NCBI GenBank assembly: GCA_011772205.1
Contig: WVZY01000076.1
Coordinates: 114,567 to 178,566 of the forward strand
Direction: 5' to 3'
Source: Candidatus Latescibacterota bacterium
Lineage (GTDB): Bacteria > Krumholzibacteriota > Krumholzibacteriia > WVZY01
DNA length: 64,000 nt
Made by a program: the position numbers and the translations under genes
Notes under the pieces: model-generated
Told to the model about the DNA's origin: nothing
What the model saw: only the letters and a program-made list of their open reading frames with translations
Databases searched by the model: none
Part shown: positions 4,718 to 24,372 of the stretch, piece after piece
How positions within the stretch are numbered: position 1 is the stretch's first letter
Layout of the letters: every line of letters starts with the position of its first letter

Positions 4718-5120
4718 CTTTCGCTCCTCTAGCCTCGCTCGGTGTCGGTTTGATCCAATCGAGGTCGCCTTTGGCCCACGCATAAATAAGCCCTACAAAC
4801 AGGATGAGCACGAAAACGAGGATCTCGACGAGGGCCACCATACCCAGTTTCTGCGCAATCCAATTGCGGAAAACCACCGCAACGGGAAAAATGAAAACGA
4901 CCTCGACTTCGAAGATTAGAAAGATCAGAGCGATCAAAAAGAAGCGGGAGTTGTAGTTGATCCAAGCGGATCCAACGGGCTCTTCGCCGCATTCGTAGGT
5001 TGTGCTCTTGACCGAATCATAGCTGGATGGCCGGAAGAGCCGCCCGATGAATAGGACGACTCCGACGAAAGCCATGCCGACGAGCAGGAAAACGATAACG
5101 TTGGCGAACTGGAAATACAT
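4710..5120 (-). CDS. nuoA: NADH-quinone oxidoreductase subunit A
   Basis: Three-TM small protein with the YECGEEP motif; first gene of the operon. Confidence 0.88.
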
Positions 5121-5331
5121 AGTTCACATGCGGCATTCGCCGCGATTACCCTTTCGTGAATGATCCCATACAGTCGGCAGATAATTTGACCGGCATGCGG
5201 CATTGATATCGTTGCAATATACACCAGGCGGGGGGGCGAATAAAGTAAAAAATTCACAATTTGGAGAGAACAGAGGTCCTGTAACCCCTTATTCACAAAA
5301 AAGATGAGACATATCAAATGAGATGTGCCGA

Positions 5332-5985
5332 TCAGTAATCCAGAAGGACTTCGACACCTTCGAGCGCATGGACGCTTTCCACGAAGGAGGTGTGTTTTGC
5401 TTCCGGGCCGATGTACTCCATGTCGATCAGGATGGCATTTGCGTCTCTCTCGAGAGAGATGTTCTCGGGTGCAACCCGGTGCTCCGAGATAATGCTCTTG
5501 AACTGCTGCATGGCCCCCCGCGTCGCCTCAATCCGGAACCTGAGGAAATGGAGCCGCTGCGTCACCTCGAGTCGTCTCTCGAAGCGGCCGAGGGCAGTTA
5601 GGGTGAGAATGATGAGGAATGCTGCCACAACCGCTAATAGAAAGTCACCGTGGCCGATCACGAGACCCAGCGCTGCAACGAACCATAACGTTGCGGCGGT
5701 GGTCAGACCTGCTACAGAGACGCGTGATCGTATGATCGTCCCCGCTCCGAGAAAACCGATCCCCGTCACTACCTGGGCGGCGATCCTCCCCGGGTCAGCC
5801 GTGCTGCCTCCAGCGCGGGCAACTTCGGTGGAGAGAATCATGAGGAGACAGGAACCGAGGCACATGAGCATGTTGGTTCTCATGCCCGCCGGTTTCCCTT
5901 TTGTCTCCCGCTCGACTCCGATCAGCCCCCCTATGACGAGCGCGAAGATCAGGCGGAAAATATATTGGGAGAATACGGGGTCCAT
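5332..5985 (-). CDS. MgtC/SapB family membrane protein
   Basis: MgtC-family N-terminal motif (GGLIGVERETKGKPAGMRTNMLMCLGSCL), four TMs, and a C-terminal soluble domain. Confidence 0.75.
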   Translation of the reverse strand: MDPVFSQYIFRLIFALVIGGLIGVERETKGKPAGMRTNMLMCLGSCLLMILSTEVARAGGSTADPGRIAAQVVTGIGFLGAGTIIRSRVSVAGLTTAATLWFVAALGLVIGHGDFLLAVVAAFLIILTLTALGRFERRLEVTQRLHFLRFRIEATRGAMQQFKSIISEHRVAPENISLERDANAILIDMEYIGPEAKHTSFVESVHALEGVEVLLDY

Positions 5986-6080
5986 GCCGGGAATGATCGG
6001 CCTGGGCCGTACGCATTGTCAAGGAAATGTATCGGGCGTCCCAGGCAGCGGTGTTTCGGAGGCTTTGTGCAGAACTCCCC

Positions 6081-6109
6081 TTGCAATTCAGGAATAACGG
6101 TGATAAATT
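6081..6109 (+). promoter_or_regulatory. candidate sigma70-type promoter for guaB
   Basis: TTGCAA, a 17-nt spacer, then TAAATT, about 35 nt upstream of the guaB ATG. A GGGGG ribosome-binding site precedes the start. Confidence 0.35.
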
Positions 6110-6141
6110 TCACAAATTAAGCCAAAAATTGGGGGTTCTTC

Positions 6142-7623
6142 ATGCCTGAGAAGATATTGGGAATGGGTATTACGTTTGACGATGTGCTTCTGATTCCTGG
6201 CAAATCGTCCGTTCAGCCATCGGAAGTGAACGTCAGCACACGACTTACAAAGGACATTGCACTCAATATTCCAATTGTCTCCGCTGCAATGGATACTGTC
6301 ACAGAAGCGGAATTTGCCATCGCGCTCGCCCGGGAAGGTGGGATTGGGATCATCCACAGAAACATGAGCCCTGAGGCTCAGGCGGGGCAGGTGGATATGG
6401 TGAAGCGCAGCGAGAGCGGAGTCGTCAGCAATCCCATCACACTGGGACCGGACCAGCTTGTGAGAGACGCCAGGGCGGTGATGCGAAAATACAACATCTC
6501 AGGTGTTCCGATTACGGATATGGGGATACTCGTCGGTATGCTCACTACTCGGGACTTGCGCTTCGTCGAGGACGATTCGGTTCCCATTAGAGAATTGATG
6601 ACATCCGAAGGGCTCATAACCGCCGCGGAGGGAATCTCGATGGAGGAAGCAAAAAGAATCCTCCACGAGCACAGGATCGAAAAGCTGCCGGTCGTTGATT
6701 CGAAAAAGAGAATGAAAGGCCTCATTACGTTCAAAGACATAAAAAAGAGCACGGATTATCCGAACGCGTGCAAGGATGAGGAAGGCAGGCTTCGAGTAGG
6801 CGCTGCTGTGGGTGTTGGAAAAGACGCAGCACGGCGCGTGGATCTCCTCGTCGAGAGTCATGTAGATGTGATCGCGATCGACACGGCCCATGGGCATTCG
6901 GAAAATGTGATCGACACACTAACGAAAGTCAAGACACGGCACAGAAACCTTCAGGTAATTGCGGGAAACATTGCAACAGCAGCTGCGGCGAGAGATCTCA
7001 TCAAAGCGGGCGCGGACGGAATCAAGGTCGGCGTGGGGCCGGGAGCGATCTGCACGACGCGGGTGATTGCAGGCATCGGGGTTCCTCAGATCACCGCTAT
7101 CATGGAATGTGCCGCCGTTGCTGGAAAAGTTGGGGTGCCGCTCATCGCCGACGGAGGCGTGAAATACAGCGGGGACATCGTCAAGGCAATCGCTGCCGGT
7201 GGGGATACGGTAATGATTGGAAGCCTGTTCGCAGGCGCCGACGAGACGCCGGGAGAAATCGTCCTTTATGAGGGCCGGAGCTTCAAGATTTATCGTGGAA
7301 TGGGATCTGTGGAGGCGATGAGGCAGGGAAGCCGGGATCGTTACGCACAGGAGGATGTGGCGGAAGAGACCAAGCTTGTCGCAGAGGGAATCGAGGGACG
7401 AGTACCCTACAAAGGAAAGCTCTCGGAATCCGTGTTCCAGCTCGTCGGTGGATTGCGTGCCGGTATGGGATATTGCGGAGTCCGGACCATAGATGAGCTC
7501 AAAAGGAAAGGCAGCTTCATCCAGGTCACTGCGGCTGGGCTTAGAGAAAGCCATCCGCATGATGTCATTATCACCAAAGAAGCCCCTAACTATCGTCTCA
7601 GCCAGATCGACAATCGTCGCTAG
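6142..7623 (+). CDS. guaB: IMP dehydrogenase
   Basis: IMPDH N-terminus ([16 protein letters not shown]), a CBS pair, the catalytic loop [20 protein letters not shown], and GSLFAG. Confidence 0.95.
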
Positions 7624-7711
7624 AGAGATTTATTGCCCTCCGGTATTCCCCTGGATTGGGAAAGCAATCTCAACCAGCCGGAACGAATGAACCAAAACTC
7701 ATCTGTCCACC

Positions 7712-8575
7712 ATGACGTGGCACGGCCAAATCAACCGAACCCTCTGGGAGATTGAAGCTCTTCTCGAAAAGGATCCGAAGCGCTTCGTCCTGCGGCGAGA
7801 ACTGCTTCGGACTCATTTTCTCCAACGTTACGAGTTCGATCGGAACCTTCATATTCCGAGAGATGATCGCTCGTTCCTTTTTCTGCAACAGGAGCCCGCG
7901 GCTGTCTGCTTGCTGTTCCACGGCGGCAACGGCACACCGGCGGAAATGAGGGATCTCGGCAATTGTCTGTACGCGAAAGGCTATACAGCTTATTGTCCGC
8001 GATTTTTCAGGATGGATTCCAAAGACCGGATGGTTTCCTGGGAATCGTGGTTGACGTATGCCCAAAACGCTCTTCAGGTCTCCAGGCGATACTCGGAAGA
8101 AGTATATATCATCGGACTGAGCATTGGCGGAACGCTCGCTTTGATATTGAACAAAATGCACGAGGTGAACGCTTTCGTGCTCCTCTCTCCCGCACTTTTC
8201 CCCCGGTACACCATGAAGGAACGGGCAGCCGAAGTGGGGAGGCGTGTTGCACCGACGTTTTTTTATCGAGTAGCCGGCTGGAACGGCGAACTCGCCAAAG
8301 CGATGGAACACGCTAGAGAACATCCGGCGGAAGTCAGAGCACCCATGTTAGTGCTCCAGGCAAGGGACGATAAAAGGCTATCCACCCGCGGGCTAAAATT
8401 TCTCCGGCGTTTGGCTGTACATCCGATGAGCCAGGTCAGGCTCCTGCCATTTGGATCGCACATTCTCACTCGCGGCAAAGCAAGGGAAGAAGCCTTTGAG
8501 CGGATAAGCGATTTCCTGCAGGCGGTTCAGTCTCAAGGAAACCACCGAACGGGGACCGGCAGGCGATCTTCGTAA
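7712..8575 (+). CDS. alpha/beta-fold hydrolase (esterase/lipase family)
   Basis: HGG oxyanion motif (LLFHGGNG) and a GxSxG nucleophile elbow (GLSIGG). About 287 aa. Confidence 0.65.
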   Translation: MTWHGQINRTLWEIEALLEKDPKRFVLRRELLRTHFLQRYEFDRNLHIPRDDRSFLFLQQEPAAVCLLFHGGNGTPAEMRDLGNCLYAKGYTAYCPRFFRMDSKDRMVSWESWLTYAQNALQVSRRYSEEVYIIGLSIGGTLALILNKMHEVNAFVLLSPALFPRYTMKERAAEVGRRVAPTFFYRVAGWNGELAKAMEHAREHPAEVRAPMLVLQARDDKRLSTRGLKFLRRLAVHPMSQVRLLPFGSHILTRGKAREEAFERISDFLQAVQSQGNHRTGTGRRSS

Positions 8576-8725
8576 GGGTGCTGGGTGATGGGGATTCCTC
8601 ACCTGCGCTCACTATGAAGAATGACGGATCAAGACGCGCTAGCGGAGGCGACTCCCTTTTGGACGCGAGGCTTTATGGCTCAATCCAGGTGTTTTTTGAG
8701 TGGGATTAAATAGTGCAAGGATCGA

Positions 8726-9490
8726 TTAATCGTCGATCTTGAAATAGAACGACTCATCGATTAGCTGAATGGCTTTGACGAGTTTTTCGAGCTCGATTCT
8801 CAGCTCGGGATCTTTGGATTTCCGGTACGCCGAGTAAAGATCGAGGAAGCGATCGCGGAGTTCTTTGAGCTCTTCGCTTTCTTGGTACTTGTCGATTGAT
8901 CTTTCAAGGTGATAGATGTCTCCGTTTCCCAACCTCTCTAGTATGTTGAAGTATTCGCCCCGCATGTGGCTGAGGATCTCCACGTAGTTTTCGAATCCCC
9001 GGGATAGCTTTTCGAGAACCTCACTGATCGCCGTCGGTTTCCGGAACATCGACTGGCTGTAAGAATAGGCAAACTGATAATATGCTTTTCCTTTCCCCAT
9101 GTGGGCTTCTTCCGTGTGTTTGAACAGCGGTGAAGAAACGCCCCTGCCATCTGGATTTCGAAAGATGCCAATTGATATGAGAAGAAAATCTGCATTGGTC
9201 TTGTAAATAGTGTATTTCAGCCGAACATCCGACGAGTCCTTTATCTTTTCGAACAGGCTCTGGTCATAAGGGGAGAGGTATTTTTTCGCCCTGCGGTGAT
9301 ATTCGGGATTCATGAACGAGCACAACAAGTTTGCGAGATATACGTTTACGTCTTCATCGTAGAAATCATGATTTGAAGGATAGCCTGTCTCCATCCGGCT
9401 GTAGAGGAGACAGTTCATCATGAAGAAGAAATCGGGTTCGATCTCTCTTTTGCTGTTCGATCCAAAGTTGATGTGAGATTCGAGTTCCAC
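8726..9490 (-). CDS. hypothetical protein (AT-rich, compositionally atypical orphan)
   Basis: Long ORF (254 aa) with a clearly lower GC than its neighbours and codons rich in K, E, Y, F, N and I. I recognise no family. Confidence 0.5.
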   Translation of the reverse strand: MELESHINFGSNSKREIEPDFFFMMNCLLYSRMETGYPSNHDFYDEDVNVYLANLLCSFMNPEYHRRAKKYLSPYDQSLFEKIKDSSDVRLKYTIYKTNADFLLISIGIFRNPDGRGVSSPLFKHTEEAHMGKGKAYYQFAYSYSQSMFRKPTAISEVLEKLSRGFENYVEILSHMRGEYFNILERLGNGDIYHLERSIDKYQESEELKELRDRFLDLYSAYRKSKDPELRIELEKLVKAIQLIDESFYFKIDD

Positions 9491-9810
9491 TGGTGTCTTT
9501 CTGTTGATGATAAGTGTTCATTCCCCCAATTCTTTGACCACGAAAAACAGCAAGCATTATGCCACCACGCAGTATCTGCTGTTTCTGCAGGTAATCTTGG
9601 GGACCACTCCCTTTCGCTGATTTCCAGTCCCTGAGGCTGATCTGGGACCCCTGCCTAAAATTTGATCGTGGAGAAATTATCGAAAAAGGCGGAGTGGAGA
9701 GCAGATGTGCTGCAAGCTACATTATATAATTGTGAATTATTATGATATAGCAAATCCAAAAGGCGTTTAGAGTGCCCATCAAATCTGATTAATTAAGATC
9801 GCTTTGGTAT

Positions 9811-9838
9811 TTTCAACCTTCGAAAAATCCGCTATAAT
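9811..9838 (+). promoter_or_regulatory. candidate promoter with a perfect TATAAT -10 upstream of the C-N hydrolase gene
   Basis: TTTCAA, a 16-nt spacer, then TATAAT. It would produce a leader of about 130 nt containing two GC-rich hairpins (CCAGC…GCTGG and CGCGCC…GGCGCG). Confidence 0.35.
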
Positions 9839-9973
9839 GAAGCTCGTGAAACCGCCCAAAGGCGCTTAACTCCTTTAGAGAGTGCTAGTTTCTCAGCCTG
9901 CTTTGCACCAGCCCTCTTTACTGCTGGGTCGCCGCGCCAAAAATGGAAGGCGCGCCATAACAGGGGGTGAACA

Positions 9974-10783
9974 TTGAAAATCGGTTTCCTGCAACTCAGG
10001 CCAAAATTCGGCGAAGTCAAGGAAAACGTAAGAAGTGCCTTGTCGCTTCTGAAAAACGTCTCTGACGCGACGATCGTCCTGCCCGAGCTGTTCAATACGG
10101 GTTATTTGTTCCGCAACCTCGAGGAACTCAAGGAATTAGCAGAGCCGATCAACCGCGGATATACGGTGCCTGCTCTCAAGAAGGTCGCGAAACAGCGGGG
10201 ACTCAACTTGGCCTTTGGGATGGCAGAAGTGAAGAATAGAAAGTACTACAATTCGTCCGTCCTGATCACCGCCAAAGGAAAAGTATACAGCTATCAGAAG
10301 ACTCATCTTTTCGACAGAGAGAAGCTCTTCTTTCAACCTGGGACCAAGGCCTACCAGATCTACCCGGTTGACGGCACGAAACTGGGGATGATGGTCTGTT
10401 TCGATTGGATTTTCCCGGAGGTCACCAGAATCCTTGCATTGAAAGGCGCTCAGATTATTCTTCATCCCGCAAATCTCATTCTTCCATGGGGCCAGGATGC
10501 GATGCGAACCAGATCGATAGAGAACAGGGTATTTTCCATTACTGCGAATCGGATCGGCACCGAGAAACGAGGCAACCTCTCGCTGTCGTTCAGCGGTAGA
10601 AGCCAGATTGTCGATCCGAAGGGTAATATTCTGGCAAGTGCTGGAGAGCGGAGCGAATCGCTCAAGATCGTCGAGATCGATGCGCGCGAGGCCCAGGACA
10701 AGATGGTGACCGCCAACAACGATCTATTCAAGGATCGAAAAGTATCGCTCTACAAGTCTCTCGTTGGCAGGAATACCGGTTAG
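9974..10783 (+). CDS. carbon-nitrogen hydrolase family protein (nitrilase/amidase superfamily)
   Basis: C-N hydrolase fold features: an E…K…C triad context (LPELFNTGY; MMVCFDWIFPE with the catalytic Cys). TTG start with a GGGGGTGA ribosome-binding site. Confidence 0.75.
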   Translation: MKIGFLQLRPKFGEVKENVRSALSLLKNVSDATIVLPELFNTGYLFRNLEELKELAEPINRGYTVPALKKVAKQRGLNLAFGMAEVKNRKYYNSSVLITAKGKVYSYQKTHLFDREKLFFQPGTKAYQIYPVDGTKLGMMVCFDWIFPEVTRILALKGAQIILHPANLILPWGQDAMRTRSIENRVFSITANRIGTEKRGNLSLSFSGRSQIVDPKGNILASAGERSESLKIVEIDAREAQDKMVTANNDLFKDRKVSLYKSLVGRNTG

Positions 10784-11043
10784 GCATGACGGCTCCGTTA
10801 GCTCAACAATGACACGTTAAAAGCAACGCTGTTCCCACCCGGCTCTTGCAAACTGCAAAGGTCACTCACTCCTACAGTACGTATTTGCTGCTTCAGAACC
10901 GATTTAATCATAAAGAGTTAAGCACGTACCGGGTCTGTATTACACGGCCGGGTGCTGGCATAGTACTTGCGATCCAACCCACGAAACACCCAGTTTTTTC
11001 AATACGTTCGAAAGTAACGTCTCGCTCAAAAAGGAGATAAGCT

Positions 11044-13032
11044 GTGGATGCAAAGCGACCTCCAGCGCTGACTTCGCCTTGGAAAATCGGCTTTCTCGTT
11101 TCACTGCTACTTATTTTTCTAAGCGTCGGCGTGAACTACATGCTTTTTAGAATATTTCACCTATCGTGGAGCTGGATTGGATTAGAGGAAGGGAATTGGT
11201 TCTTCAACAAGGATCGATTTGTTCGTGAAATGTTCCCGCTCATGGCCCTCATTGCCCTCGCCTCACTCATCGCTTATTTTGCGATTACGTCGGCGGTTCG
11301 AAGGTACAAAGCTTATTTGGATTCCGGACATGATTATCGGAATCTCATAACAATGGTCAAAGGGATCAGAGATCTCGACGACGAGAATGTTATCAGAAAA
11401 TTAAGCAAGTATCCGGAGCTTCGTGATTTTCTTAGAAACGTGCGAGAGCAAGCCAAGGAAAGAGATCTAGCGCTTGCCGAACGTGAAGATGCTGTTGCCG
11501 AAAGAGAGCAGCAAAATGTTTCCTCTGATCTCATCAGAAGAGAAAGCGAATCGCTTGCGCGGGCGATTTTGGAGTTGTCGGATGGCGGATTAATCGGAGA
11601 CGTGAAAACTACCGTTCCGGATCTCATGCCAATTGAGAAAGCAATCCACGGGCTTGCAAACTCGGGTGGTGCCCAACCTGGAGCCGTTGACCTAGGAAAA
11701 CTTCATGGCGTGCGTAAGGACGTCGATGAAGCGATCAAGTATTTGAAAAGCCGCTTGGCCGAAAGCTCAAAAGAGCACAAAGCGAGCTGCAGCGTTGCTC
11801 AGGAGATCGAAAATCAGTTATCCCAGCTGAATGCAGTTCTGGCCAGCACGGGCGGGGTAACTCCCGCGGGAGCGGGCGGTACCGATTTCACTGGACTGGT
11901 CCAGTCGATGGATACGATAGAGCGGCTGTCCCTGGTTCTTGCAGATCTTGGCGAAGAAGCCAAGGGCATCGCAATCAATACGGCGCTGCAAGCCGGGTCG
12001 GGCGAGGGGGCGGTGGCAGATCTCATACAGTTGGCTGAAGATGTCCGCGGTGTCGCGTTGAAGTTTACGGACATGGCCCAATCCTATCAGGAAGCAATCG
12101 AACAAATGCGCAAGTCGATGGCGGGCGTGGAAGCTTCACGAGCAACGCCCGCTGGGGAATGCGAAGAGGGCCGGAATGTCGCACAGGTAGCTTCCGCGCT
12201 CAAAAGTAAAGTCTCACTGTGGGTCGAGCGCATGGTAGTCCTTTCGGATCAGATCAAGAACGTCGAGAAAAGCTTGGGACTAACGTTTGGGCCGCTCCAA
12301 GAAAAACTGGCCAACCTCAGAGAAGAGGGTGCGAAGCTGAGCGTGGAACCGACTGGCAAAGAAAGAGCGGCTAAGGGTCTCCAAGTGGAGACAGCTGGAG
12401 GCGGCTCGCCTGAGGAAGATCTGCAGGTAGAGACGAGCGCACCGCCGGGACTCGAACAAACAAAATCCGCTTCTACGGTGTTTTCCCAAATGGGAGCTCC
12501 CTCTCAAGACATACCAGGCCTCGAGAGCAATACGGGTCAGGTTTTCGACCAAGAGCCTAAAGAAGGGGAGATGTTCGCCGAACTCTCGAAGGCGGATTCA
12601 ATCGAGAAAGATGAAGACGTAACGTTCGAAGAAATCTCGTCGGAGAAGCTGGAAAAGCAGCGGGGAACGCCTTTGCGGCGTAAACGGCAGGACCCATCTG
12701 AGAGTGAACCGCCAGAAGAGACGATTGCAATAGAGCCTCCCAGCTCAGGATCCCCACTTGGAGGTCCTGCGGGCGAGGATACTGCGAGCGCTGATACATT
12801 CGAGGGAAAGATTGCTTTTGATCTGAGCAAAGCTACTGGATCCGAAGCCCAAGATTCTGAGGACTCGGAAGGCATGTACGACCACAACGCATTCTCATTT
12901 GAGGACATGAAAACAGCGGGGCGGCAGCAGATCCCAGCACAGAAGGCCGATTGGAAAGGTGCATTAGATGGTGCAACGGATGAAGAAGAAGTCATCGATC
13001 TTTACGAGCTCGGCGCTGTGGATTTCGTTTAG
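11044..13032 (+). CDS. membrane protein with a degenerate MCP-like signalling (hairpin-tip) segment and an acidic low-complexity tail
   Basis: GTG start with an AAAGGAGAT ribosome-binding site. Two N-terminal TMs with only a ~15-aa loop, so no sensor domain. Coiled-coil regions follow. The segment GIAINTALQAGSGEGAVADLIQLAEDVRGVALKF resembles the MCP consensus [31 protein letters not shown]. The C-terminal ~200 aa are D/E/S/P-rich. Confidence 0.55.
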   Translation: MDAKRPPALTSPWKIGFLVSLLLIFLSVGVNYMLFRIFHLSWSWIGLEEGNWFFNKDRFVREMFPLMALIALASLIAYFAITSAVRRYKAYLDSGHDYRNLITMVKGIRDLDDENVIRKLSKYPELRDFLRNVREQAKERDLALAEREDAVAEREQQNVSSDLIRRESESLARAILELSDGGLIGDVKTTVPDLMPIEKAIHGLANSGGAQPGAVDLGKLHGVRKDVDEAIKYLKSRLAESSKEHKASCSVAQEIENQLSQLNAVLASTGGVTPAGAGGTDFTGLVQSMDTIERLSLVLADLGEEAKGIAINTALQAGSGEGAVADLIQLAEDVRGVALKFTDMAQSYQEAIEQMRKSMAGVEASRATPAGECEEGRNVAQVASALKSKVSLWVERMVVLSDQIKNVEKSLGLTFGPLQEKLANLREEGAKLSVEPTGKERAAKGLQVETAGGGSPEEDLQVETSAPPGLEQTKSASTVFSQMGAPSQDIPGLESNTGQVFDQEPKEGEMFAELSKADSIEKDEDVTFEEISSEKLEKQRGTPLRRKRQDPSESEPPEETIAIEPPSSGSPLGGPAGEDTASADTFEGKIAFDLSKATGSEAQDSEDSEGMYDHNAFSFEDMKTAGRQQIPAQKADWKGALDGATDEEEVIDLYELGAVDFV

Positions 13033-13062
13033 ATTTGAGCTGATAAGCTTTTGGAGGAGTAC

Positions 13063-15141
13063 ATGAAACCCGCCCTAGACAGCCTCGGATTGTTTATCGC
13101 GCAGGTTAAGCAGCATGCAGCAGCGCTCACCGAACTCTTGACGAAGGGCTCGAGTGTCGACCAGGCAAGCGACCTGATGGAAAGGTGTATCGTCTCGACC
13201 ACTATGCTTGCGGGCAGCACATCGGTCATGGGATTAGAAAGCTGGCAGGATTGCTTATCTGCTTGCGAAGCCCTGCTATCTCGCTACCGCAGTCTTTCGC
13301 TCCCGTGGGATGAGAAAATCGCCCAAGTGCTTTCCGAGTTGATCGAGAAAGAGGATCTGCTTGTGTCAGCCCACGCTGGCGGCGAGATTGGTGACCTGTC
13401 CTCCATCGTGTCCGCAGAAGAGATTCAGGCGTTGCTGGAGGAGGCCAACGTATTGCTCGATACCGAACCGGTTACTGTAGCTCCCGAGGCGGATTCGAAG
13501 CCGGAAGGGGGATCGGCGGGGGGCGGGCGGAAATCCACGGGAACCGGGATTGCAGCGGAAATGAGTGGGGAGGCAGGCGCAGCGGAGAAAGCTGCAGGAA
13601 TTGATGCGAGTCAGAGGGCATTCCTAGCTGGAACGACAGCGTCTCTCAAGAAAGCCGCCAATTCTCTGTTCGATGGATTGTCGGTCATTCAGGGCGACAG
13701 GGGCGAAATATTGGATGGCTCGCTCATGGACATTCGCAAGCAGCTTTGTCTCCTTAGTTTTTTTGCACGCTCAATGGGTGGGATATTGAGGCAAGACTCA
13801 GGCGAAAATCTCCACACGGTCACATCATCGCTCGAGCCTGCAAAAGTGGCGCTTAAAGATTACGCGGGCGGTCTCTGCAGGAGCGGGGAGAGACATGTTG
13901 ATATTGCTTTCGGGGGCACTCAAAATGAAGTGGATGCAGGTCTACTTTTCCATATCGAGCGAGTGCTTCAGTGGATGATTCACGATGTATACGTTCGATG
14001 CGAAGAACCTCATCTCAAAATCGATGTCGAGGTCAGTGAGAAAAACGGGGCGCTGTGGTGGAAAGTGAGAGATAACGGGGAGAACTTCATAACAAACTCG
14101 AGAGTAGACCATGATGAGTTACTGGCATTCTATCCCTCCCTCAAGGAGGTTCGCAAAACACTCCAACATCTAGAAGGCGTCTTATGGGTTGAGCCCGATG
14201 AAAACCACGACACCCGTTTTGCATTCTCGACGCCTCTGTCCAAGGAGCAGATTAGATTCTTGGTCTGGGGTAAAGGGGAGAAAAGCTTCGCAGTTCTTTC
14301 AACACAATTCTGCACGACTTTGCAGGTAGAGTCTACTTCGGTCGAGTGTGATTCGAGAGGAGAACATTTGGTAATAGACGACCGCAGAGTTCCGTTAGTG
14401 AGATTGGAACTCGTCTACCCCGAGGCGCCTGGAGAAGGGAATGAGATCGCAGTCATAGGGGCTGTTGAAAAGAGAGTTGCATTTTACGTGGAGGGTGAAG
14501 GGCGACACGAGGAAGGTCTCTGGTTGAAGGACGCCATACCGTTGTGGAAAGGGCTTCCCAGTGGGGTGGCTCAAGTGGGACGCCGGAGAATCCCGCTCAT
14601 TGAAGCAAAGGATCTGTTGGAGAGATATCTATATGCCTCGGAAGAAGCTGTTGAAGCGGAAGTTTCTGGAGGAGTGGTACAAGAAGACAAGGATCTTTCC
14701 CAAGCTCAGGCAACGCTGGAGAAAGGTTCTCCATCTCCTCCAGAACTAAATACAGAGGGAAAAGAGGTCGATGTGCTCGTGGTGGAGAGAAGTGATGCCG
14801 TGAAGGAGGCGTTCGAGTCTGTATTAGCAAGAGGGAATTACAGAGCGAAAGTCGTGGGTAAGCTTGATGAGGCGATGGAGATCATAGAAAACAGCACTCC
14901 GCGTCTCATCATTAGCGAGTTCCGAATGCCTTCGATGGCGGCGAAGAAACTAACACAGGCCTTAAGGAAGGAAGGCAAAAACATCCCCGTGCTGGTGACG
15001 ACATCTCACTCAGGGGCCAATGCCGAGCTCCTCGTAGAGAAACTGGGTGTTTCAGGCTACCTCAGCAAGCCCCTCGATGACGACGCCGTTTATGCGAAGG
15101 TCACTGACATTCTGCGAGAGGAAAACGGTTCCGGCGAATGA
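13063..15141 (+). CDS. CheA-like protein with degenerate HPt, HATPase and receiver-like domains (putative pseudo-histidine kinase)
   Basis: ATG preceded by GGAGGAG. HPt-like N-terminus where the phospho-His position reads RCIVSTTMLAGSTSV instead of RAAHSIKGGAG. Kinase-core-like stretch HIERVLQWMIHDVYV…KVRDNGENFI…GVLWVEPDENHDTRFAFSTPL, against the CheA N, G1 and G2 boxes ending …GTxFxIxLPLT. A CheW-like region follows. The C-terminal receiver-like domain has E where the phospho-Asp should be (LIISEFRMP). Confidence 0.55.
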   Translation: MKPALDSLGLFIAQVKQHAAALTELLTKGSSVDQASDLMERCIVSTTMLAGSTSVMGLESWQDCLSACEALLSRYRSLSLPWDEKIAQVLSELIEKEDLLVSAHAGGEIGDLSSIVSAEEIQALLEEANVLLDTEPVTVAPEADSKPEGGSAGGGRKSTGTGIAAEMSGEAGAAEKAAGIDASQRAFLAGTTASLKKAANSLFDGLSVIQGDRGEILDGSLMDIRKQLCLLSFFARSMGGILRQDSGENLHTVTSSLEPAKVALKDYAGGLCRSGERHVDIAFGGTQNEVDAGLLFHIERVLQWMIHDVYVRCEEPHLKIDVEVSEKNGALWWKVRDNGENFITNSRVDHDELLAFYPSLKEVRKTLQHLEGVLWVEPDENHDTRFAFSTPLSKEQIRFLVWGKGEKSFAVLSTQFCTTLQVESTSVECDSRGEHLVIDDRRVPLVRLELVYPEAPGEGNEIAVIGAVEKRVAFYVEGEGRHEEGLWLKDAIPLWKGLPSGVAQVGRRRIPLIEAKDLLERYLYASEEAVEAEVSGGVVQEDKDLSQAQATLEKGSPSPPELNTEGKEVDVLVVERSDAVKEAFESVLARGNYRAKVVGKLDEAMEIIENSTPRLIISEFRMPSMAAKKLTQALRKEGKNIPVLVTTSHSGANAELLVEKLGVSGYLSKPLDDDAVYAKVTDILREENGSGE

Positions 15142-15336
15142 CCCGGATCCAAGATTGGCTGGTTGCGGGGCCTAATAAGCTAAGACGTTTAATCATAAGC
15201 GCTTCCATTGGGTGAATATCCATTGGCATTGAGGCCGCTTTTCCAATAGTGGCGGTGGTTTTGGTACAGATCGTGCAACCGCTTGAAATGGGTGAGATAC
15301 TCAGAATACGATCGGCAAGCAAAAGGATGGAAAGTT

Positions 15337-15558
15337 ATGAGCAAGTGGAGAGAATCTGATTATTCCAGCATTATCATCGGCGGCGAGGATGCGGATGTCG
15401 TGATGACTTCGGTGGAAGCAGCAGAGTATCTCAAGATGCATGTCAAAACGGTTTGTAGGCTTGCAAAAGAGAAGAAAATTCCTGCGAAGAAGGTGGGCAG
15501 TGAGTGGAGGTTCCTCAAGAGCGTTTTGGATAAATGGCTTGCCCAGGAGGTGGTCTAG
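15337..15558 (+). CDS. excisionase-family helix-turn-helix DNA-binding protein
   Basis: About 74 aa from the internal Met, with an AAGGATGG ribosome-binding site. The TSVEAAEYLKMHVKTVCRLAKEKKIP segment is typical of HTH_17/Xis-type domains. Confidence 0.55.
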   Translation: MSKWRESDYSSIIIGGEDADVVMTSVEAAEYLKMHVKTVCRLAKEKKIPAKKVGSEWRFLKSVLDKWLAQEVV

Positions 15559-15632
15559 AGAGGCGTCGCCCGTGAGATTTCACCTCTCTGCTTTCCCCCC
15601 AATGCCGGACCGATCACCACCATACCACGAGA

Positions 15633-17465
15633 GTGCCAATGGCCAAAACGGTCATAGAGAAAGTCCCTTCAAAAAGCTCCGGTGTAACAGTATTTAAAAT
15701 CACCGGCACTCTCGGTTTCCACGAAAAAGAGAACCTTATCAAGCTGTTTGATGAGTGCGAGAAGCACGGGATTAGCAAGCTCGTAATGGATTTTTCCGAG
15801 TTGACATCACTTGGAGGAGGGTGCGCCAAAATCATTCGCGAAAAGGCCGATTCGGGGGATTTCTTCATCGGTGTGGCAGGTGCATCGAAGACGACTCTGA
15901 AATTCCTACGTAATGAAGATGAGCCAGGGCGTGTTCGCTTCGCATCGACTGTAGAGGAAGCGATGGAAGAGATCGGAAGCGGATCTGGCGAGGAAGTCGT
16001 TGTGGAGCACCCCGCGAAAAAATCCGCTTCAACCTCCGCGGCTAAGAAACAGAAAGCCAAGAAGCTCCAAGCGAAGGAAAAAGAACCCAAGGTGTCGGCT
16101 CGTGTGGAAGCTGATCACGCGAAAGAGGATGAGATTGAAAAGCATGAAACCGATGGAGCCAGATCCGAGGCACAAAATCGCACCGCACCTGATACCGGCG
16201 ACAATGGACTACCGAACGTGATCTGTCTCGGCCACGACGCCAACGGCGTCGTGAGCGAAGAAAGCACGGGAGAGCCCGTCGACGAGTGGTACGCTGATGC
16301 GCCTGTGCCGGGTCTGGAGGGGGCGCCGATCGAGGAGAAATCGGCGGATCTCGAAAAATCATCGGATAGGAAGCTCAAGAGAAGGTTGGTGCAATATAGC
16401 TCGCTTCTCTCGATCAGCTCGGATTTCAACCGAATCATGGAGAAATCGAAGCTTCTGGACACGATTCTTCTTACCACGATCGCCCAGGTTGGCGTGGAAT
16501 CTGCAGCCTTCTTCGAATACCGGGAGGATGGGCTCGAGCCGATCGCGGCGAAGGGGATCGAACTCGAACAGTGCACCCCGCTGGTTCTCGAAGGGACAGG
16601 GGATGGACGCATCTGGGAAGGTGATGAAATCTTGGAGATGTCTGATTCTCCGATCGAGGAAGAGTCCAAAAAGAAAGCCCTGTCATCGGGATTTGCTTGG
16701 GCGGCTCCTGTGATCATTTATAACGAATTCAGAGGGCTTGTTCTGATCGGCAAGCCAATCAAAAAAACATTAAACGAGGATTCGCTCGAAGTTCTGAACA
16801 TAATTGTCCGGCAAGCCGCAGTTGCTTATGAAAACACCCGCCGTTTCGAGGAAGAAAGTGAGCGAATCCTTGGTCTGGTCCAGAGTCTTATCTCGCTCAT
16901 CGAGGAGAGAACCCTTGCGAGGGGCAACACGTCGCTCATCGCAGGTCACTCGTATATGCTCGCAAAAAAGATGCACTACCCGGACGAGCTCATCAAGGAT
17001 CTGATGTTCGGCGTGGTACTTCGAGACATTGGGATGATCAAGGTGAGCGACCTCATTGTAAGGAGTCCCAGGGAGCTCGGTAAGGAGGAGTGGGAGATTA
17101 TCAAGAGGCACCCAATCGACGGTGCCGACATGCTTAGGAAGATGAAGTTCTCGGACCACGCCGTCAAGATTGTCCTGTGCCATCATGAGCGGTATAACGG
17201 CGAGGGTTATCCGAATCAATTAAGGGGCGGTGAGATTCCTCTCGGCGCCAGAATCGTCTCGGTCGTAGAGAGTTATGGGGCGATGTTGCAGGACCGTCCG
17301 ACAAGACCTGCGCTGACGCGCGAAGAGGCTTTGAACACTTTGAAGGAAAATTGGGGGATGCGATACGACCCTGAGGTCGTCGAACAATTCGTCGAGATCA
17401 TCGAAGAAGAAATACGCACGGGAGAAAACAAACAATACATGAGCAGCGAATTTTTCAGCGTCTAG
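15633..17465 (+). CDS. STAS–GAF–HD-GYP domain protein with a substituted HD motif
   Basis: N-terminal STAS/anti-sigma-antagonist-like domain, a long acidic linker, a GAF domain, and a C-terminal HD-GYP (HHERYNGEGYP). The usual LHDIGK reads LRDIGM, and the upstream His motif is not obvious. Confidence 0.7.
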   Translation: MPMAKTVIEKVPSKSSGVTVFKITGTLGFHEKENLIKLFDECEKHGISKLVMDFSELTSLGGGCAKIIREKADSGDFFIGVAGASKTTLKFLRNEDEPGRVRFASTVEEAMEEIGSGSGEEVVVEHPAKKSASTSAAKKQKAKKLQAKEKEPKVSARVEADHAKEDEIEKHETDGARSEAQNRTAPDTGDNGLPNVICLGHDANGVVSEESTGEPVDEWYADAPVPGLEGAPIEEKSADLEKSSDRKLKRRLVQYSSLLSISSDFNRIMEKSKLLDTILLTTIAQVGVESAAFFEYREDGLEPIAAKGIELEQCTPLVLEGTGDGRIWEGDEILEMSDSPIEEESKKKALSSGFAWAAPVIIYNEFRGLVLIGKPIKKTLNEDSLEVLNIIVRQAAVAYENTRRFEEESERILGLVQSLISLIEERTLARGNTSLIAGHSYMLAKKMHYPDELIKDLMFGVVLRDIGMIKVSDLIVRSPRELGKEEWEIIKRHPIDGADMLRKMKFSDHAVKIVLCHHERYNGEGYPNQLRGGEIPLGARIVSVVESYGAMLQDRPTRPALTREEALNTLKENWGMRYDPEVVEQFVEIIEEEIRTGENKQYMSSEFFSV

Positions 17466-17477
17466 AGGTGAATAGTC

Positions 17478-19043
17478 ATGCAAGAAGATATCCTCGTCGT
17501 CGATGACGATCCGGATGTTCTGGACATTCTAAGCGAAACGCTCAATAAGCGGGGTTATAACGTTGTGGTTGCCCTGGATGCGCAGTCTGCGCTCCGGTCT
17601 TTCAAGCGGAAGCAACCCAGCCTCGTGATCCTGGATATCATGCTGCCGGATATGGACGGCTTGGAGGTCTTCAAGCGGATGCGCGCAGACCAAGCGGATC
17701 GCTACATTCCGATCCTCTTCCTCTCGTCTAACGGCGATCTGGAGACAAAGCTAAGCGGATTCGATATGGGGGCGGAAGATTACCTGGTAAAGCCGGTTTC
17801 GCTGAAGGAATTGAATGCTAAGATCGGGAAGATTCTAAAACGCACGTCCCAGGCCCAGGCGCTCTGGGAAGAGCGCGAAGCGTTGGAAACGGAAGTAACG
17901 AAGGAGCATGAGAATTACATTCATATCAATAAGCAGCTAAAGAAGCAGGTCCTCGCTATGAAGACGCTTTTTTCCATATCGCAGGACCTGACCCGCATCC
18001 TCGAACTGGATGAATTGATCAATGCCTTTGCACTCACGATTGTTGGAGAGCTGAGAATCTCGAGTATGGCGTTTTTCGCCCTGGTGAGCGAGAACAGCAA
18101 GATCCTCAGCCTACGGGGAGTCAAAGGTTTCCGAAAGGAGAAATTCGCAGGTCTTGAAATACCCAGAGACTGTGCCTTCGTTGAATGGCTGGGAACCCGG
18201 GCCAAGCCCAAAAAGATAGTGAGGAGCAACGACCGCACGTGGGTCAAGCGACTTCCAGACATCCGGTTGGCTGCTTTCGAGTACGCAACGCCAATCATGA
18301 TCAAGGACAAGATGAGAGGAATCGTTTTCACAGGGCCAAAGCTGAGCAGGGATGATTACACACCATATGACCTCGATATGCTGCAGTTCATTTGCAACTC
18401 CGCTGGAGTCGGTATGGAGAATGCACGATTGTTTAAAGAGCTTCAGACAACGTATCTATCAACGGTAAAAACGCTTGTTTCCATTATCGAAGCGAAGGAT
18501 AGCTATACGAGGGGCCATACGGAACGGGTTGCGGAGTACGCCATAGCGATCGCAGAAAGAATGAATCTTCCCCAAGAGGAGCAAAGGCGGATCGCATTCG
18601 GTGCGGTCCTTCATGATATCGGTAAACTCGGGGTCCTGGAAAAAGTCCTCAATAAAAAGGAGCAGTTGGATACTGAGGAATGGAAGATATTGAAAGCCCA
18701 CCCCGAAGTCGGAGCCAGCATCATCGAGAATATGGAGTTCCTTACGGGAACGGTAGAACTGGTGCGGCATCACCATGAAAACTGGAATGGGAAAGGTTAC
18801 CCGGATGGGTTGAAAGGAGAGGAGATCCCAATTGGATCGAGAATCATTGCAGTCGCAGATGGCTTCGATGCAATGACAACAGATCGTCCCTACCGTAAAG
18901 CGCTAAAATGGACCGAAGCCCTCTCGACAATCAAGGAAGGCTCCGGCATCCAATACGATCCCGAAGTTGTGCGGAGCTTCGAGGAGATTATCAGAGACAA
19001 GAACTTCAGAAAACGAATGAGAGAAAAGCATTCCAATCCATAA
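17478..19043 (+). CDS. response regulator with GAF and canonical HD-GYP phosphodiesterase domains (RpfG-like)
   Basis: REC domain (VVDDDPD…LVILDIMLPDMDG…K). HD-GYP motifs are intact: YTRGHTERV, LHDIGK, HHHENWNGKGYP and AVADGFDAMTTDRPYR. GAGGTGA ribosome-binding site. Confidence 0.85.
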   Translation: MQEDILVVDDDPDVLDILSETLNKRGYNVVVALDAQSALRSFKRKQPSLVILDIMLPDMDGLEVFKRMRADQADRYIPILFLSSNGDLETKLSGFDMGAEDYLVKPVSLKELNAKIGKILKRTSQAQALWEEREALETEVTKEHENYIHINKQLKKQVLAMKTLFSISQDLTRILELDELINAFALTIVGELRISSMAFFALVSENSKILSLRGVKGFRKEKFAGLEIPRDCAFVEWLGTRAKPKKIVRSNDRTWVKRLPDIRLAAFEYATPIMIKDKMRGIVFTGPKLSRDDYTPYDLDMLQFICNSAGVGMENARLFKELQTTYLSTVKTLVSIIEAKDSYTRGHTERVAEYAIAIAERMNLPQEEQRRIAFGAVLHDIGKLGVLEKVLNKKEQLDTEEWKILKAHPEVGASIIENMEFLTGTVELVRHHHENWNGKGYPDGLKGEEIPIGSRIIAVADGFDAMTTDRPYRKALKWTEALSTIKEGSGIQYDPEVVRSFEEIIRDKNFRKRMREKHSNP

Positions 19044-19960
19044 CTCTCCCTCCACTCGTCTATAACAGATATTGTCGGTTCCCGTGCACATGCATGGGAT
19101 ATCGTCAACTGCGTTTCCGATGGCATATATGTCCTTACGCTCCATTTCCTCTTACATTTGACCGACTCGGCGACCTGCTGAACTGCCGGTTGCTGTAAAT
19201 CCAGTGGACGGACCGGGCAGCAGCCGGTGAGCTCAATTGGAAAATACCGCACGGAGAATTTCATAATCCGTATCGCTGCAATGAGATATATAAACCTTTA
19301 ATGATGATTCTGGCGGTTGCTTGGCACTTGTTTTGCGATGACGAGAAGCTGGCAATGCGAGACTTGGAGAGATGAGGGGTAAGCATGTGTGAAGTGTTGG
19401 GTTTGGGATGATGTGGTGCAACGCATAGAGTGCTTCTCATCTCCTAATGGAAAAAGAGGGAGTCGGATCAAGCGTGGATTGGGAGGAACCACGTTGCGGT
19501 CCTTGGAAAGCCAGCTTTTAGCGGCCGGACACTTCGAACGAGGCACCTAACGGAGCAGTTAGGTAATCTTAACTTCGCGGCTAGCAACTGCAGAGGGTGT
19601 TGCTAAATGACCCGCCAATCGGGCGGGCTGTTCCGACGTGCTTCAGAGAGGAACACCATCGCTTGCAGGTCTTTTCAAAAGAGCTCCCTCTTTTTTCATT
19701 GCTCGTGCAGATGCTGGCTCAATCCGGTATTGAGTGGAAGAACGCGTCCCCGGGTTCCAAGCCTTTCCGACCGGCACGGCTCCTTCGAAGATAAGGGCAT
19801 GCGCAGGACTCATCATATTCTGCACTTAGAAATGCCTTGTAACGCCTGAGCCAGATCCCTATCATTAGCATAACTCGAATGCTTAAGAGCGGTTACCGCG
19901 CCGGCTAAGTATGGCTTGTTTTGCGGATAACTGCTTGCGCTTCTCCCTCTTCATGGCGGT

Positions 19961-22636: not shown

Positions 22637-22662
22637 TTGTTCACCAAATTCCCTTCATCATC

Positions 22663-23451
22663 TCACGTAGCGGAGGCAGGGCTCGGGACGGTTTCTTCCG
22701 TTCCCAAGCCGAAGTTCTTGAGCAAGTCGTTCCTGAGGGTTTTCGTATCGATCTTCCGCTTTAGCTTTCCTCCCTGTGCATATGCGATGGTTCGTGTTTC
22801 TTCCGAGACCACGATGATGATTGCATCGGTCTCTTCGGATAAACCGAGGGCGGCGCGGTGACGTGTGCCGAGGGTTGCGGATAGCCGCTGGTCTTGTGTC
22901 AAGGGGAGAATACATCCCGCTGCGACAACCCGATCGTTCTGTATGATCACGGCGCCGTCGTGCAGGGGGCTTGGGGGGGTGAAAATCGTTTCTAGAAGCT
23001 CCGCGCCCACTTTAGCGTCGATTTTGGTGCCGGTTTCCACGTAGTTTTTCAAACCCATATCCTTTTCCAAAACGATGAGCGCGCCAAGCCCTTTCTCGGT
23101 CAGGTGGGTGCACGCTTTGATGATTTCGGGGATGATCCCGGTCTCTTCCACTCTAAAGTATCGGCGAAGAAAGCTGTGCTGCCCGATGGAAGCGAGGGCC
23201 CGGCGCAATTCGGGCTGAAAAATGATGACGAAAGCGATGACCCAAACCGTCTTGAGGCTCGAAATGATCCAGTTCAGCGCGATGAGGTTGATCCATTGGG
23301 CAGCTACGGAGAGGACGAAGAGGATAATGAGCCCGATGAACATGTGCACCGCTCGGGTTCCCTTCATCAGAATGAAAAGCCTGTAGAGCAGATAGGACAC
23401 GACCAGGATGTCGAGTATGTCGATTATTAGATCTGTAGAAATGAAGCCCAT
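22663..23451 (-). CDS. cdaA: diadenylate cyclase (c-di-AMP synthase)
   Basis: Three N-terminal TMs plus a DAC domain (DGAVII…, LGTRHRAALG, and the RTIAYA-type motifs). Confidence 0.88.
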   Translation of the reverse strand: MGFISTDLIIDILDILVVSYLLYRLFILMKGTRAVHMFIGLIILFVLSVAAQWINLIALNWIISSLKTVWVIAFVIIFQPELRRALASIGQHSFLRRYFRVEETGIIPEIIKACTHLTEKGLGALIVLEKDMGLKNYVETGTKIDAKVGAELLETIFTPPSPLHDGAVIIQNDRVVAAGCILPLTQDQRLSATLGTRHRAALGLSEETDAIIIVVSEETRTIAYAQGGKLKRKIDTKTLRNDLLKNFGLGTEETVPSPASAT

Positions 23452-23478
23452 CGAAATCCCATCGTAAGGGTGAGGATT

Positions 23479-24372
23479 CTAGCTGTCTATAGAGTATGCA
23501 CTCCCATCGGCCATCGCGTCCAGCACCTTCAGCAGCTCGACCGTTTCCTTTACATCATGCACCCTGATGATCTCAACGCTTTCGGACCAGCAACGAGCAG
23601 CTACTGCGAGACTTCCGGAAAGCCTATGATCAGCGTCCGCATCGAGGAGTTTTCCTAGAAAGCTCTTACGAGACCCTCCAACGAGAACGGGATACCCGAG
23701 GGACCTGATTTTTCCGATGTTGTCGAGTAGTGCGAGATTGTCACAAAGGCGCTTGCCAAATCCAATTCCCGGATCGACAACGATGGAATCCCCAGCGATG
23801 CCTTTTCCCCTTAGTTGGTGGGCACGTTCAGATAGAAAGTCTGTGACTTCGCGGACAACATTGGAGTAAGTCGGATCGTCCTGCATTGTCTTTGGATCGC
23901 CTTTCATGTGCATGATGACTACCGGCGCCTTGTACCTCAGGAGCACTTCGACCATCCTCGGATCGCGGCAAGCACAAACGGCGTTGATCATATGGCAGCC
24001 GAGCCTGAGGGCTTCCTCCGCGATGAAGGGTTTCTGCGTGTCCACTGAGATAGGAATCTGAATCTTCCCAATAATGGCTTCAAGAACCGGCCCGATCCTG
24101 TCGAGCTCGGTCTCCTCCGAGACAGGATCGGACCCGGGGCGGGTGGATTCACCGCCGATATCGAGGATATCAGCCCCATCTTCCGCGAGCTCGAATGCCC
24201 TCTCGATTGCTCTTTCGCTATCGATGTATCGTCCGCCATCGGAAAAAGAGTCGGGGGTCACGTTGAGGATCCCCATAACGAGAGGAGTCCGAACGAACGA
24301 GAGGCTCACATCACGACAGCGCAATGAACGGATTCTTTCGTGGTTAGAGAATTGTTTCATGCCGGGAATCAT
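23479..24372 (-). CDS. folP: dihydropteroate synthase
   Basis: Pterin-binding domain ([31 protein letters not shown]). Its stop overlaps ftsH by 4 nt. Confidence 0.9.

Follow-up and report, generated by a model that had tools for sequence, protein, structure and literature searches.

A sensor-less chemoreceptor homologue, probably the membrane receptor or scaffold of a chemosensory-like module without phosphotransfer

Chemosensory arrays are textbook machines for the control of a kinase. What is the role of a receptor-like protein that has no sensor domain and whose neighbour resembles a CheA kinase deprived of its catalytic sites? The question is raised by a locus in a 64,000-nucleotide stretch of DNA from a Candidatus Latescibacterota bacterium (GenBank assembly GCA_011772205.1, contig WVZY01000076.1, positions 114,567 to 178,566), which we call the window. 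The gene at 11044-13032 (+) encodes a membrane protein that a first-pass annotation, made from the DNA letters alone, had likened to a methyl-accepting chemotaxis protein (MCP) and regarded as the probable membrane anchor or scaffold partner of the CheA-like protein encoded next to it. Our profile comparisons indicate that this MCP-like protein is a remote homologue of the MCP signalling domain, at a level that we consider statistically secure. We argue that it most likely serves as receptor or scaffold in a conserved chemosensory-like module, one that has probably given up phosphotransfer.

The gene is a single long open reading frame (ORF) of 662 codons, whose GTG start codon lies 8 nucleotides after an AAGGAG ribosome-binding site, in a window with a GC content of ~52%. 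A scan of promoters and terminators gave counts no better than those of shuffled sequence. The product is 100% identical to an NCBI 'hypothetical protein' of a Candidatus Latescibacteria metagenome-assembled genome (MAG). We modelled it with AlphaFold2 on an alignment of 40 sequences (mean predicted local distance difference test score, pLDDT, of 65). The features of the protein are the following (aa, amino acids; TM, transmembrane segment):

11044..13032, + strand: MCP-like membrane protein (662 aa), from the ORF with its ribosome-binding site, the family, and the profile homology to MCPs.
11062..11112, + strand: N-terminal cytoplasmic motif PALTSPWKIGFLVSLLL (aa 7-23), which leads into TM1; its columns are conserved to 90% or more among 40 members.
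11086..11295, + strand: TM1 (aa 15-37), outside loop with a beta-hairpin (aa 38-61) and TM2 (aa 62-84), from a hydropathy scan and the AlphaFold2 secondary structure.
11296..11433, + strand: juxtamembrane motif AVRxYKxYLDSGxDY (aa 85-98), followed by DL...YPELRxFL (aa 110-130), in the position of a HAMP domain but lacking a match to it.
11686..12333, + strand: probably antiparallel helical region resembling the MCP signalling domain (aa 215-430), from profile alignment to PDB entries (PcaY, TM1143 and others), AlphaFold2 helices, Foldseek and the correlation of indels.
11938..12057, + strand: hairpin-tip segment LGEEAKGIAINTALQAGSGEG..DLIQLAEDVRGVA (aa 299-338), from an in-register alignment to the canonical tip and a table of its columns.
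12334..12990, + strand: acidic disordered tail with short linear motifs (IPGLE-like; hydrophobic-F-[AE]-[DE]-hydrophobic, here MFAEL), from pLDDT below 50, charge and a census of motifs.
12991..13029, + strand: C-terminal motif VIDLYELGAVDFV (consensus DLYxLGAVDY), in which G657 and A658 are invariant, present in nearly all full-length members.

Some 14 basic cytoplasmic residues precede TM1, and basic residues also follow TM2, a pattern that fits an N-in/C-in topology. Hydropathy and the AlphaFold2 model agree with the two TMs of the first-pass annotation. The loop between them is longer than the 15 or so residues that it gave (~20-24 aa, with a small predicted beta-hairpin), and still far too short for a periplasmic ligand-binding domain, whose absence had been correctly noted. 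TM2 runs on as a helix to residue 106 (AlphaFold2 helix 56-106). The cytoplasmic part is helical up to residue 430, as anticipated (helices 114-122, 124-179, 192-206, 215-268, 278-318, 324-367 and 375-430), with a turn at residues 319-323 between the fifth and sixth of these helices.

Taken alone, the protein is not significantly similar to the Pfam MCPsignal family (PF00015): it scores 12.6 bits (E = 0.12), below the gathering threshold of 34.6 bits, and would not be filed there by Pfam's own rule. The family profile built from 40 MCP-like relatives (A1) tells more, since its similarity to true MCP signalling domains is significant. Its best matches in the PDB are MCP cytoplasmic domains, first PcaY (6s18, E = 4.7e-7) and TM1143 (2ch7, E = 1.5e-6), then 3ja6_H, 3g67 and Aer, with E-values between 4.7e-7 and 1.9e-6 for the MCPs of the PDB. 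In these alignments the family tip, EEakgvAIntALqAGsGeg..LvkLAedVrdvA, falls exactly on the canonical MCP tip. Four of the 40 members also match MCPsignal directly at E ≤ 0.1. An alignment by hhalign of the family with the single TM1143 sequence (probability 30%, P = 5e-4) has the same register and was used for the register only. With the AlphaFold2 model as query, Foldseek ranks MCPs first (3g67, 9a72, 3zx6, 1qu7 and 2ch7, E = 5e-4 to 9e-3).

The relation was extended by an exhaustive HMMER scan with the family profile, which covered 1.84 billion representative proteins. The matches number 119 at E ≤ 1e-30, which are the family itself, and rise to 143 at E ≤ 1e-10 and to 6208 at E ≤ 1e-3. The first matches outside the family are canonical MCPs (P0232, P0233, P0237 and P0239, E = 8e-11 to 5e-10), which score between 1e-22 and 1e-47 with Pfam MCPsignal and one of which has an sCache-HAMP-MCPsignal architecture. 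The scan also supplied the bridging sequences, whereas a second, word-indexed search with the family profile gave only fragments and no such sequences. One of these distant relatives, P0208, has an E-value of 6e-36 with the family profile and lies above the MCPsignal gathering threshold (34.9 against 34.6 bits), which the protein of the window does not. Its tip, LGERNEKIALNLALKAQRGE....F...AEEVRKLAE, is intermediate between those of the family and of canonical MCPs, and it was found in the same gene neighbourhood as family members.

These matches bear on the simplest alternative, i.e., that the protein is a generic coiled-coil membrane protein with a structural role in division or the envelope, whose likeness to MCPs is compositional and whose place beside a CheA-like gene merely reflects synteny across the phylum. 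We give this very little credence. All the top PDB sequence matches are MCPs and share one register at the tip motif, canonical MCPs appear at E ~1e-10 among 1.84e9 proteins, and an intermediate relative lies above the Pfam threshold. The alternative is further opposed by the neighbour, which carries a P5/CheW-like domain, the type that binds MCP tips, and by a locus (L022, described below) where the pair is kept among different genes.

The tip-like segment LGEEAKGIAINTALQAGSGEG..DLIQLAEDVRGVA (aa 302-338) is in register with the MCP tip and many canonical positions are replaced, in line with the divergence reported by the first-pass annotation. The residues kept are E304, A310, N312 (in 70% of members), A314, A317, A331, [DE]333, V334, [RK]335 and A338, and the alanine/leucine core of the tip is maintained in the family. 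We compared the columns with the Tsr sequence, in a numbering that is to be taken as a lead only. The replaced positions would be Q374, N376, I377, E385, R388, the G390-G395 turn and F396, and we take N376, I377, E385, R388, G390-G395 and F396 to be the residues that make the trimer-of-dimers and CheW/CheA contacts in Tsr.

Other hallmarks of chemoreceptors are lacking. Neither the protein nor its 40 relatives have a conserved EE/QE consensus for methylation, which agrees with the lack of methylation-site pairs in the first-pass annotation, and the only conserved EE pair (aa 304-305) is part of the tip. The HAMP-like match that it had considered was not found at E ≤ 1 in Pfam, and the HAMP position is occupied by a motif specific to the family. 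Both arms of the predicted hairpin are broken by variable loops rich in glycine and proline (aa 269-277 and 368-374), which lie ~45-50 residues from the tip and symmetrically about it. Across the 40 members the lengths of the N-arm and C-arm segments are correlated (r = 0.88, uncorrected for phylogeny), and those of an upstream linker, used as control, are not (r = -0.07). Such symmetric indels are a requirement of an antiparallel hairpin and are typical of MCP evolution.

The gene that starts 30 nucleotides downstream encodes the presumed partner, and its family is equally restricted; several of its members lie on contigs whose lengths recur among the contigs of MCP-like family members:

13063..15141, + strand: CheA-derived pseudokinase (692 aa) with a P1-like bundle, a P3-like hairpin, P4, P5/CheW-like and pseudo-receiver (REC) domains, from hhalign, AlphaFold2, Foldseek and residue columns.

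The first-pass annotation had called this protein a degenerate CheA-like protein, and the evidence bears it out. Its profile aligns with genuine CheA over P4-P5-REC with a probability of 99.3% in hhalign. Its AlphaFold2 model (pLDDT of 80) matches the P3-P4-P5 part of CheA structures in Foldseek (3ja6_C, 6s1k_A, 8c5v_A and 1b3q, E = 3e-14 to 2e-12). We relied on these two comparisons for the relation to CheA, because a PDB search with the whole profile was swamped by matches to receiver domains. The catalytic sites are lost: the N box has Trp in the place of His and Asp in that of Asn, the G1 box reads DNGEN, and a deletion has removed both the ATP lid and the G2 box. In the P1-like bundle, helix B lacks a conserved His. 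In the pseudo-receiver the phospho-accepting position is a Glu in 29 of 35 members and an Asp in six, and E[QR] replaces the DD pair; Thr and Lys are invariant. Some remnants of P4 are also invariant (D337, G339, D349, Y357 and P358), hence the degenerate pocket is still under selection. As judged from its sequence, the protein is thus a catalytically degenerate derivative of CheA that keeps P3 and the CheW-like P5.

A partner of this sort weighs against a second alternative, namely that the MCP-like protein is a working chemoreceptor that feeds an ordinary chemotaxis pathway, whose active CheA and whose CheW would be encoded at other sites of the genome, and that senses through its membrane segment in the manner of sensor-less or Aer-type receptors. 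Its homology to MCP signalling domains is genuine, and some genomes of Latescibacteria encode flagella and pili (PMC4454575). Against this, the family has neither conserved methylation sites nor a HAMP match, its strictly conserved partner is a kinase-dead CheA, and the window, the only part of the genome that was searched for them, contains no CheW, CheR, CheB, CheY or flagellar genes. The replaced tip contacts (Tsr 376, 377, 385, 388, 390-395 and 396, in the tentative numbering) point the same way, and we regard a working chemoreceptor as very unlikely.

We compared the gene neighbourhoods of loci L001-L023. The genes of the MCP-like protein and of the pseudokinase are adjacent in every locus examined, including those of relatives at ~25-30% identity, with gaps of 11-56 nucleotides in annotated loci. 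Wherever a locus is long enough to show it, the order is the same: guaB, an alpha/beta-hydrolase, a 254-aa protein of no family on the opposite strand, a CN-hydrolase, the MCP-like protein, the pseudokinase, an HTH_17 protein, a STAS-HD-GYP and a REC-HD-GYP. The order is kept in the most divergent members (27-29% identity; L003 and L018), where the pseudokinase lacks its receiver, as it does in L021. Homologues of CheW, CheR or CheB were found neither in the window nor in these related loci.

Two distant loci delimit the module. In L021, which like L022 was recovered by the exhaustive search alone, we found the genes of the MCP-like, CheW-like and HTH_17 proteins. L022 comprises the 254-aa protein on the opposite strand, the MCP-like protein, a CheW-like protein with a receiver, HTH_17 and a single STAS-GAF-HD-GYP of the degenerate type in which RD replaces HD, and it has neither the CN-hydrolase nor the REC-HD-GYP. 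The pair thus persists in L022 despite different surrounding genes. Since these two loci keep the core genes, they define a universal core, which consists of the MCP-like protein, the pseudokinase, HTH_17 and the RD-type HD-GYP, possibly together with the 254-aa protein. The block from guaB to cdaA/folP (positions 5000-24400 of the window) is syntenic across the MAGs of Latescibacterota and Krumholzibacteriia that carry these loci (L001-L023). Hence, the module is embedded in a vertically inherited housekeeping region and not in a mobile island.

The MCP-like family comprises 82 clusters at 90% identity, and 119 representatives at 50% identity were retrieved at E ≤ 1e-30. They all share the same architecture, which is therefore not a chance feature. 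The genomes with a name are MAGs of Latescibacterota or Krumholzibacteriia, plus one labelled Chitinivibrionia. Neither NCBIfam nor Pfam has a model for the family, its members are annotated as 'hypothetical' at the source save for two evident mislabels, and our literature search found no account of the family or of its module. The latter is best called a chemosensory-derived module built from pseudo-enzymes, a variant not yet present in the literature that we searched.

The pairing in every locus supports the part of the first-pass annotation that made the protein a membrane-bound partner of the CheA-like protein, but a mere anchor undersells it. The hairpin tip is not the most conserved region of the family (0.63). 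The highest conservation is that of the juxtamembrane block AVRxYKxYLDSGxDY (0.82), in which V85, Y88, S94, G95, D97 and Y98 are invariant among the 40 members, followed by TM1 with the preceding PALTSPWKIGF (0.75) and by the C-terminal peptide DLYxLGAVDY (0.72), far above the helical arms (0.37) and the acidic tail (0.27). The N-terminal LTSPWKIGF, juxtamembrane YLDSGxDY and C-terminal DLYxLGAVDY motifs had all been overlooked at first. Of these, LTSPWKIGF is near-invariant and occurs also in the distant relatives P0203, P0208 and P0234, and the C-terminal motif occurs in P0230, P0234 and P0240. Both terminal motifs are present in practically all full-length members and in distant relatives of 440-470 aa, a subfamily in which the C-terminal one is doubled in tandem (IYDLxEFGAxE...DLxxFGAVxI). 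In each locus they are confined to the MCP-like ORF within 10 kb on either side. A conserved N-terminal, TM and juxtamembrane module, together with a conserved C-terminal motif, argues for a role as input or hub.

The tail that separates the hairpin from the C-terminal motif was described as rich in D/E/S/P/T and of low complexity, and this is the case: the last 232 residues (aa 431-662) contain 22% of D+E and 45% of D/E/S/P/T and have a net charge of -31. The pLDDT is below 50 at positions 431-648 and climbs to 74 in the last 13 residues. Tails are always long and acidic in the family (median length of ~200 aa, median net charge of ~-31), with short IPGLE-like motifs and zero to three copies of LFEEI, LFADI or MFEEM, of which the protein of the window has one, MFAEL. 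The C-terminal DLYxLGAVDY may resemble the alpha4/beta5 'LxxGAxDY' (GAxDY) of receivers and, more loosely, the acidic peptides by which CheZ and FliM bind CheY. Two candidates were set aside as its obligatory partner: the pseudo-receiver, since the motif is kept where the CheA-like protein has no receiver (L003 and L021), and the receiver of the REC-HD-GYP, since the motif is kept in L022, where that protein is missing.

The other genes of the locus that concern the module are as follows:

8726..9490, - strand: 254-aa soluble protein of no family, 43-81% identical in all loci.
15337..15558, + strand: HTH_17 excisionase-type DNA-binding protein of 73 aa (NCBIfam TIGR01764, E = 1.5e-13).
15633..17465, + strand: STAS-GAF-HD-GYP protein with a degenerate metal site (HD replaced by RD), from Pfam HD_5, STAS and GAF.
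17478..19043, + strand: REC-GAF-HD-GYP protein with canonical phospho-Asp, HD and GYP, from Pfam and motif alignment.

HTH_17 is extraordinarily conserved. Over 13 loci its 48-aa core shows a mean amino-acid identity of 97%, against 50% at third codon positions, while neighbouring proteins are 25-80% identical; it stands above the IMP dehydrogenase of the same loci and is nearly unchanged in the distant L021 and L022. The STAS-GAF-HD-GYP reads LRDIGM, with RD for HD, in 10 of the 10 orthologues compared and also in L022. The first His of its domain is not conserved, and HHE..GYP is kept. From these residues, the protein is probably catalytically dead and possibly a receptor of cyclic di-GMP (c-di-GMP). 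The REC-GAF-HD-GYP is usual but does not occur in every cluster. The 254-aa protein is encoded upstream on the opposite strand in all related loci, directly adjoins the MCP-like gene in L022, and for that reason may belong to the module; it has no match in Pfam, NCBIfam or PDB sequence searches. A PDB sequence search with HTH_17 also gave no match.

Between the genes of the 254-aa and MCP-like proteins, in most loci, lies that of a nitrilase-type CN-hydrolase (9974-10783, + strand; NCBIfam NF040852, E = 4.5e-76, 255 bits, under the cut-off of 500 bits). It is absent from L022 and therefore probably not part of the signalling module. Further away, a gene at 54947-59680 (- strand) encodes an unusually large enhancer-binding protein of 1577 aa, in which a sigma-54 activator AAA+ domain is joined to numerous TPR repeats and a STAND-type NTPase region. 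Housekeeping genes (ftsH, tilS, folP, cdaA, ilvC, gltX and others) make up the remainder of the window.

How might such a set of proteins work? The tip of the MCP-like protein may bind the P5 of the pseudokinase, by analogy with MCP tips, which bind the P5 of CheA and CheW. The N-terminal, TM and juxtamembrane module would be the input, responding to the state of the membrane or envelope or to a membrane partner. The signal would pass down the helical hairpin and alter the conformation or assembly of the pseudokinase complex. By contacts between proteins, the complex could then affect c-di-GMP sensing or turnover through the HD-GYP proteins, transcription through HTH_17, or both. One of these partners may be recruited by the acidic tail, whose short motifs and DLYxLGAVDY peptide would serve as the NWETF tether does for CheR/CheB. 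In its strongest form this scheme states that the whole chemosensory core has been turned into a pseudo-enzyme machine, membrane-tethered, that acts only by changes of conformation or assembly on HTH_17, on c-di-GMP sensing, or on both, with the tail and its terminal peptide as docking hub. We put it forward tentatively, as a possibility with somewhat less than even chances.

The same complex could be used differently. Its main task may be to hold HTH_17 at the membrane through the C-terminal motif or the acidic tail and to free it upon a signal, in which case the HD-GYPs would be inputs of c-di-GMP and not outputs. The gap between amino-acid and third-position identity implies constraint on nearly every residue of HTH_17, as if it bound both DNA and a protein partner, and the C-terminal motif is as conserved as HTH_17. 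The universal HD-GYP, being of the degenerate RD form, also suits a receptor better than an enzyme. But HTH_17 might just as well regulate its own operon independently, and we consider its sequestration unlikely, if well above the first two alternatives.

The reading of the MCP-like protein as receptor or scaffold of a module without phosphotransfer has to be weighed against several points. The protein alone is far under the MCPsignal threshold. Most tip residues that make the trimer and CheW/CheA contacts of E. coli Tsr (in the tentative numbering) are replaced, so the binding of P5 cannot be assumed. The correlation of arm lengths takes no account of phylogeny. Since the whole guaB-to-cdaA region is syntenic, adjacency carries less weight here than in genomes with a shuffled gene order. 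Finally, the partner of the tail motifs is a guess, and so is an output in c-di-GMP or transcription; we have much less confidence in any specific output than in the receptor or scaffold role.

The interest of the locus lies in what was kept and what was lost. The receptor-CheA architecture was maintained under strong selection in deep lineages, and yet every catalytic or phospho-accepting site that we checked in the pseudokinase is gone, and the universal HD-GYP has lost its metal site. Should the proteins form a complex, the scaffold of MCP and P5 would be reusable for signalling that is independent of phosphotransfer. The complex would also offer a tractable case of bacterial pseudo-enzyme signalling, with three invariant receptor peptide motifs, an HTH_17 of extreme conservation and, as a possible c-di-GMP receptor, a degenerate HD-GYP. 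If the pseudo-enzyme machine exists as we propose, it would represent a new operating principle for Che-type proteins, in a core locus linked to housekeeping genes across Latescibacterota, Krumholzibacteriota and related uncultured lineages.

Among known systems, transmembrane MCPs (PF00015, e.g., E. coli Tsr, T. maritima TM1143 and P. putida PcaY) share with the protein the N-in/C-in topology with two TMs, probably the antiparallel helical hairpin, the tip motif E..A.N.A..A...A.[DE]VR..A, symmetric indels in both arms, and a gene paired with that of a CheA-type protein bearing a P5/CheW-like domain. They differ in having what it lacks, i.e., a periplasmic ligand-binding domain, a HAMP match and methylation sites, whereas it has variable loops in both arms, an N-terminal and juxtamembrane module of its own, and an acidic tail of ~200 aa that ends in a conserved motif. 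Aer-type receptors also have a membrane hairpin with a short outside loop, so that sensing cannot be periplasmic. Yet Aer carries a PAS-FAD sensor at its N-terminus as well as a HAMP domain, while the MCP-like protein has ~14 residues before TM1 and neither PAS nor HAMP. Its C-terminal motif recalls the NWETF pentapeptide tether of Tar and Tsr, where CheR and CheB dock, as a short conserved peptide at the end of a flexible linker. The sequence of DLYxLGAVDY is unrelated, the linker is ~6 times longer, strongly acidic and with internal motifs, and no CheR or CheB is encoded nearby.

The Wsp system of Pseudomonas (the MCP WspA, the CheA-REC hybrid WspE and the REC-GGDEF WspR) offers the comparison at the level of the operon. 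WspE is an active kinase, unlike the catalytically degenerate protein found here. Wsp includes homologues of CheW, CheR and CheB and relies on receptor methylation, whereas this locus has no accessory Che genes, and its c-di-GMP domains are HD-GYP (one of them degenerate) instead of GGDEF. Both systems nevertheless bring together, in one operon and with no tie to flagella, an MCP-type membrane protein, a hybrid of CheA and a receiver, and proteins of the c-di-GMP type, and for both an input from the membrane or the cell surface is plausible.

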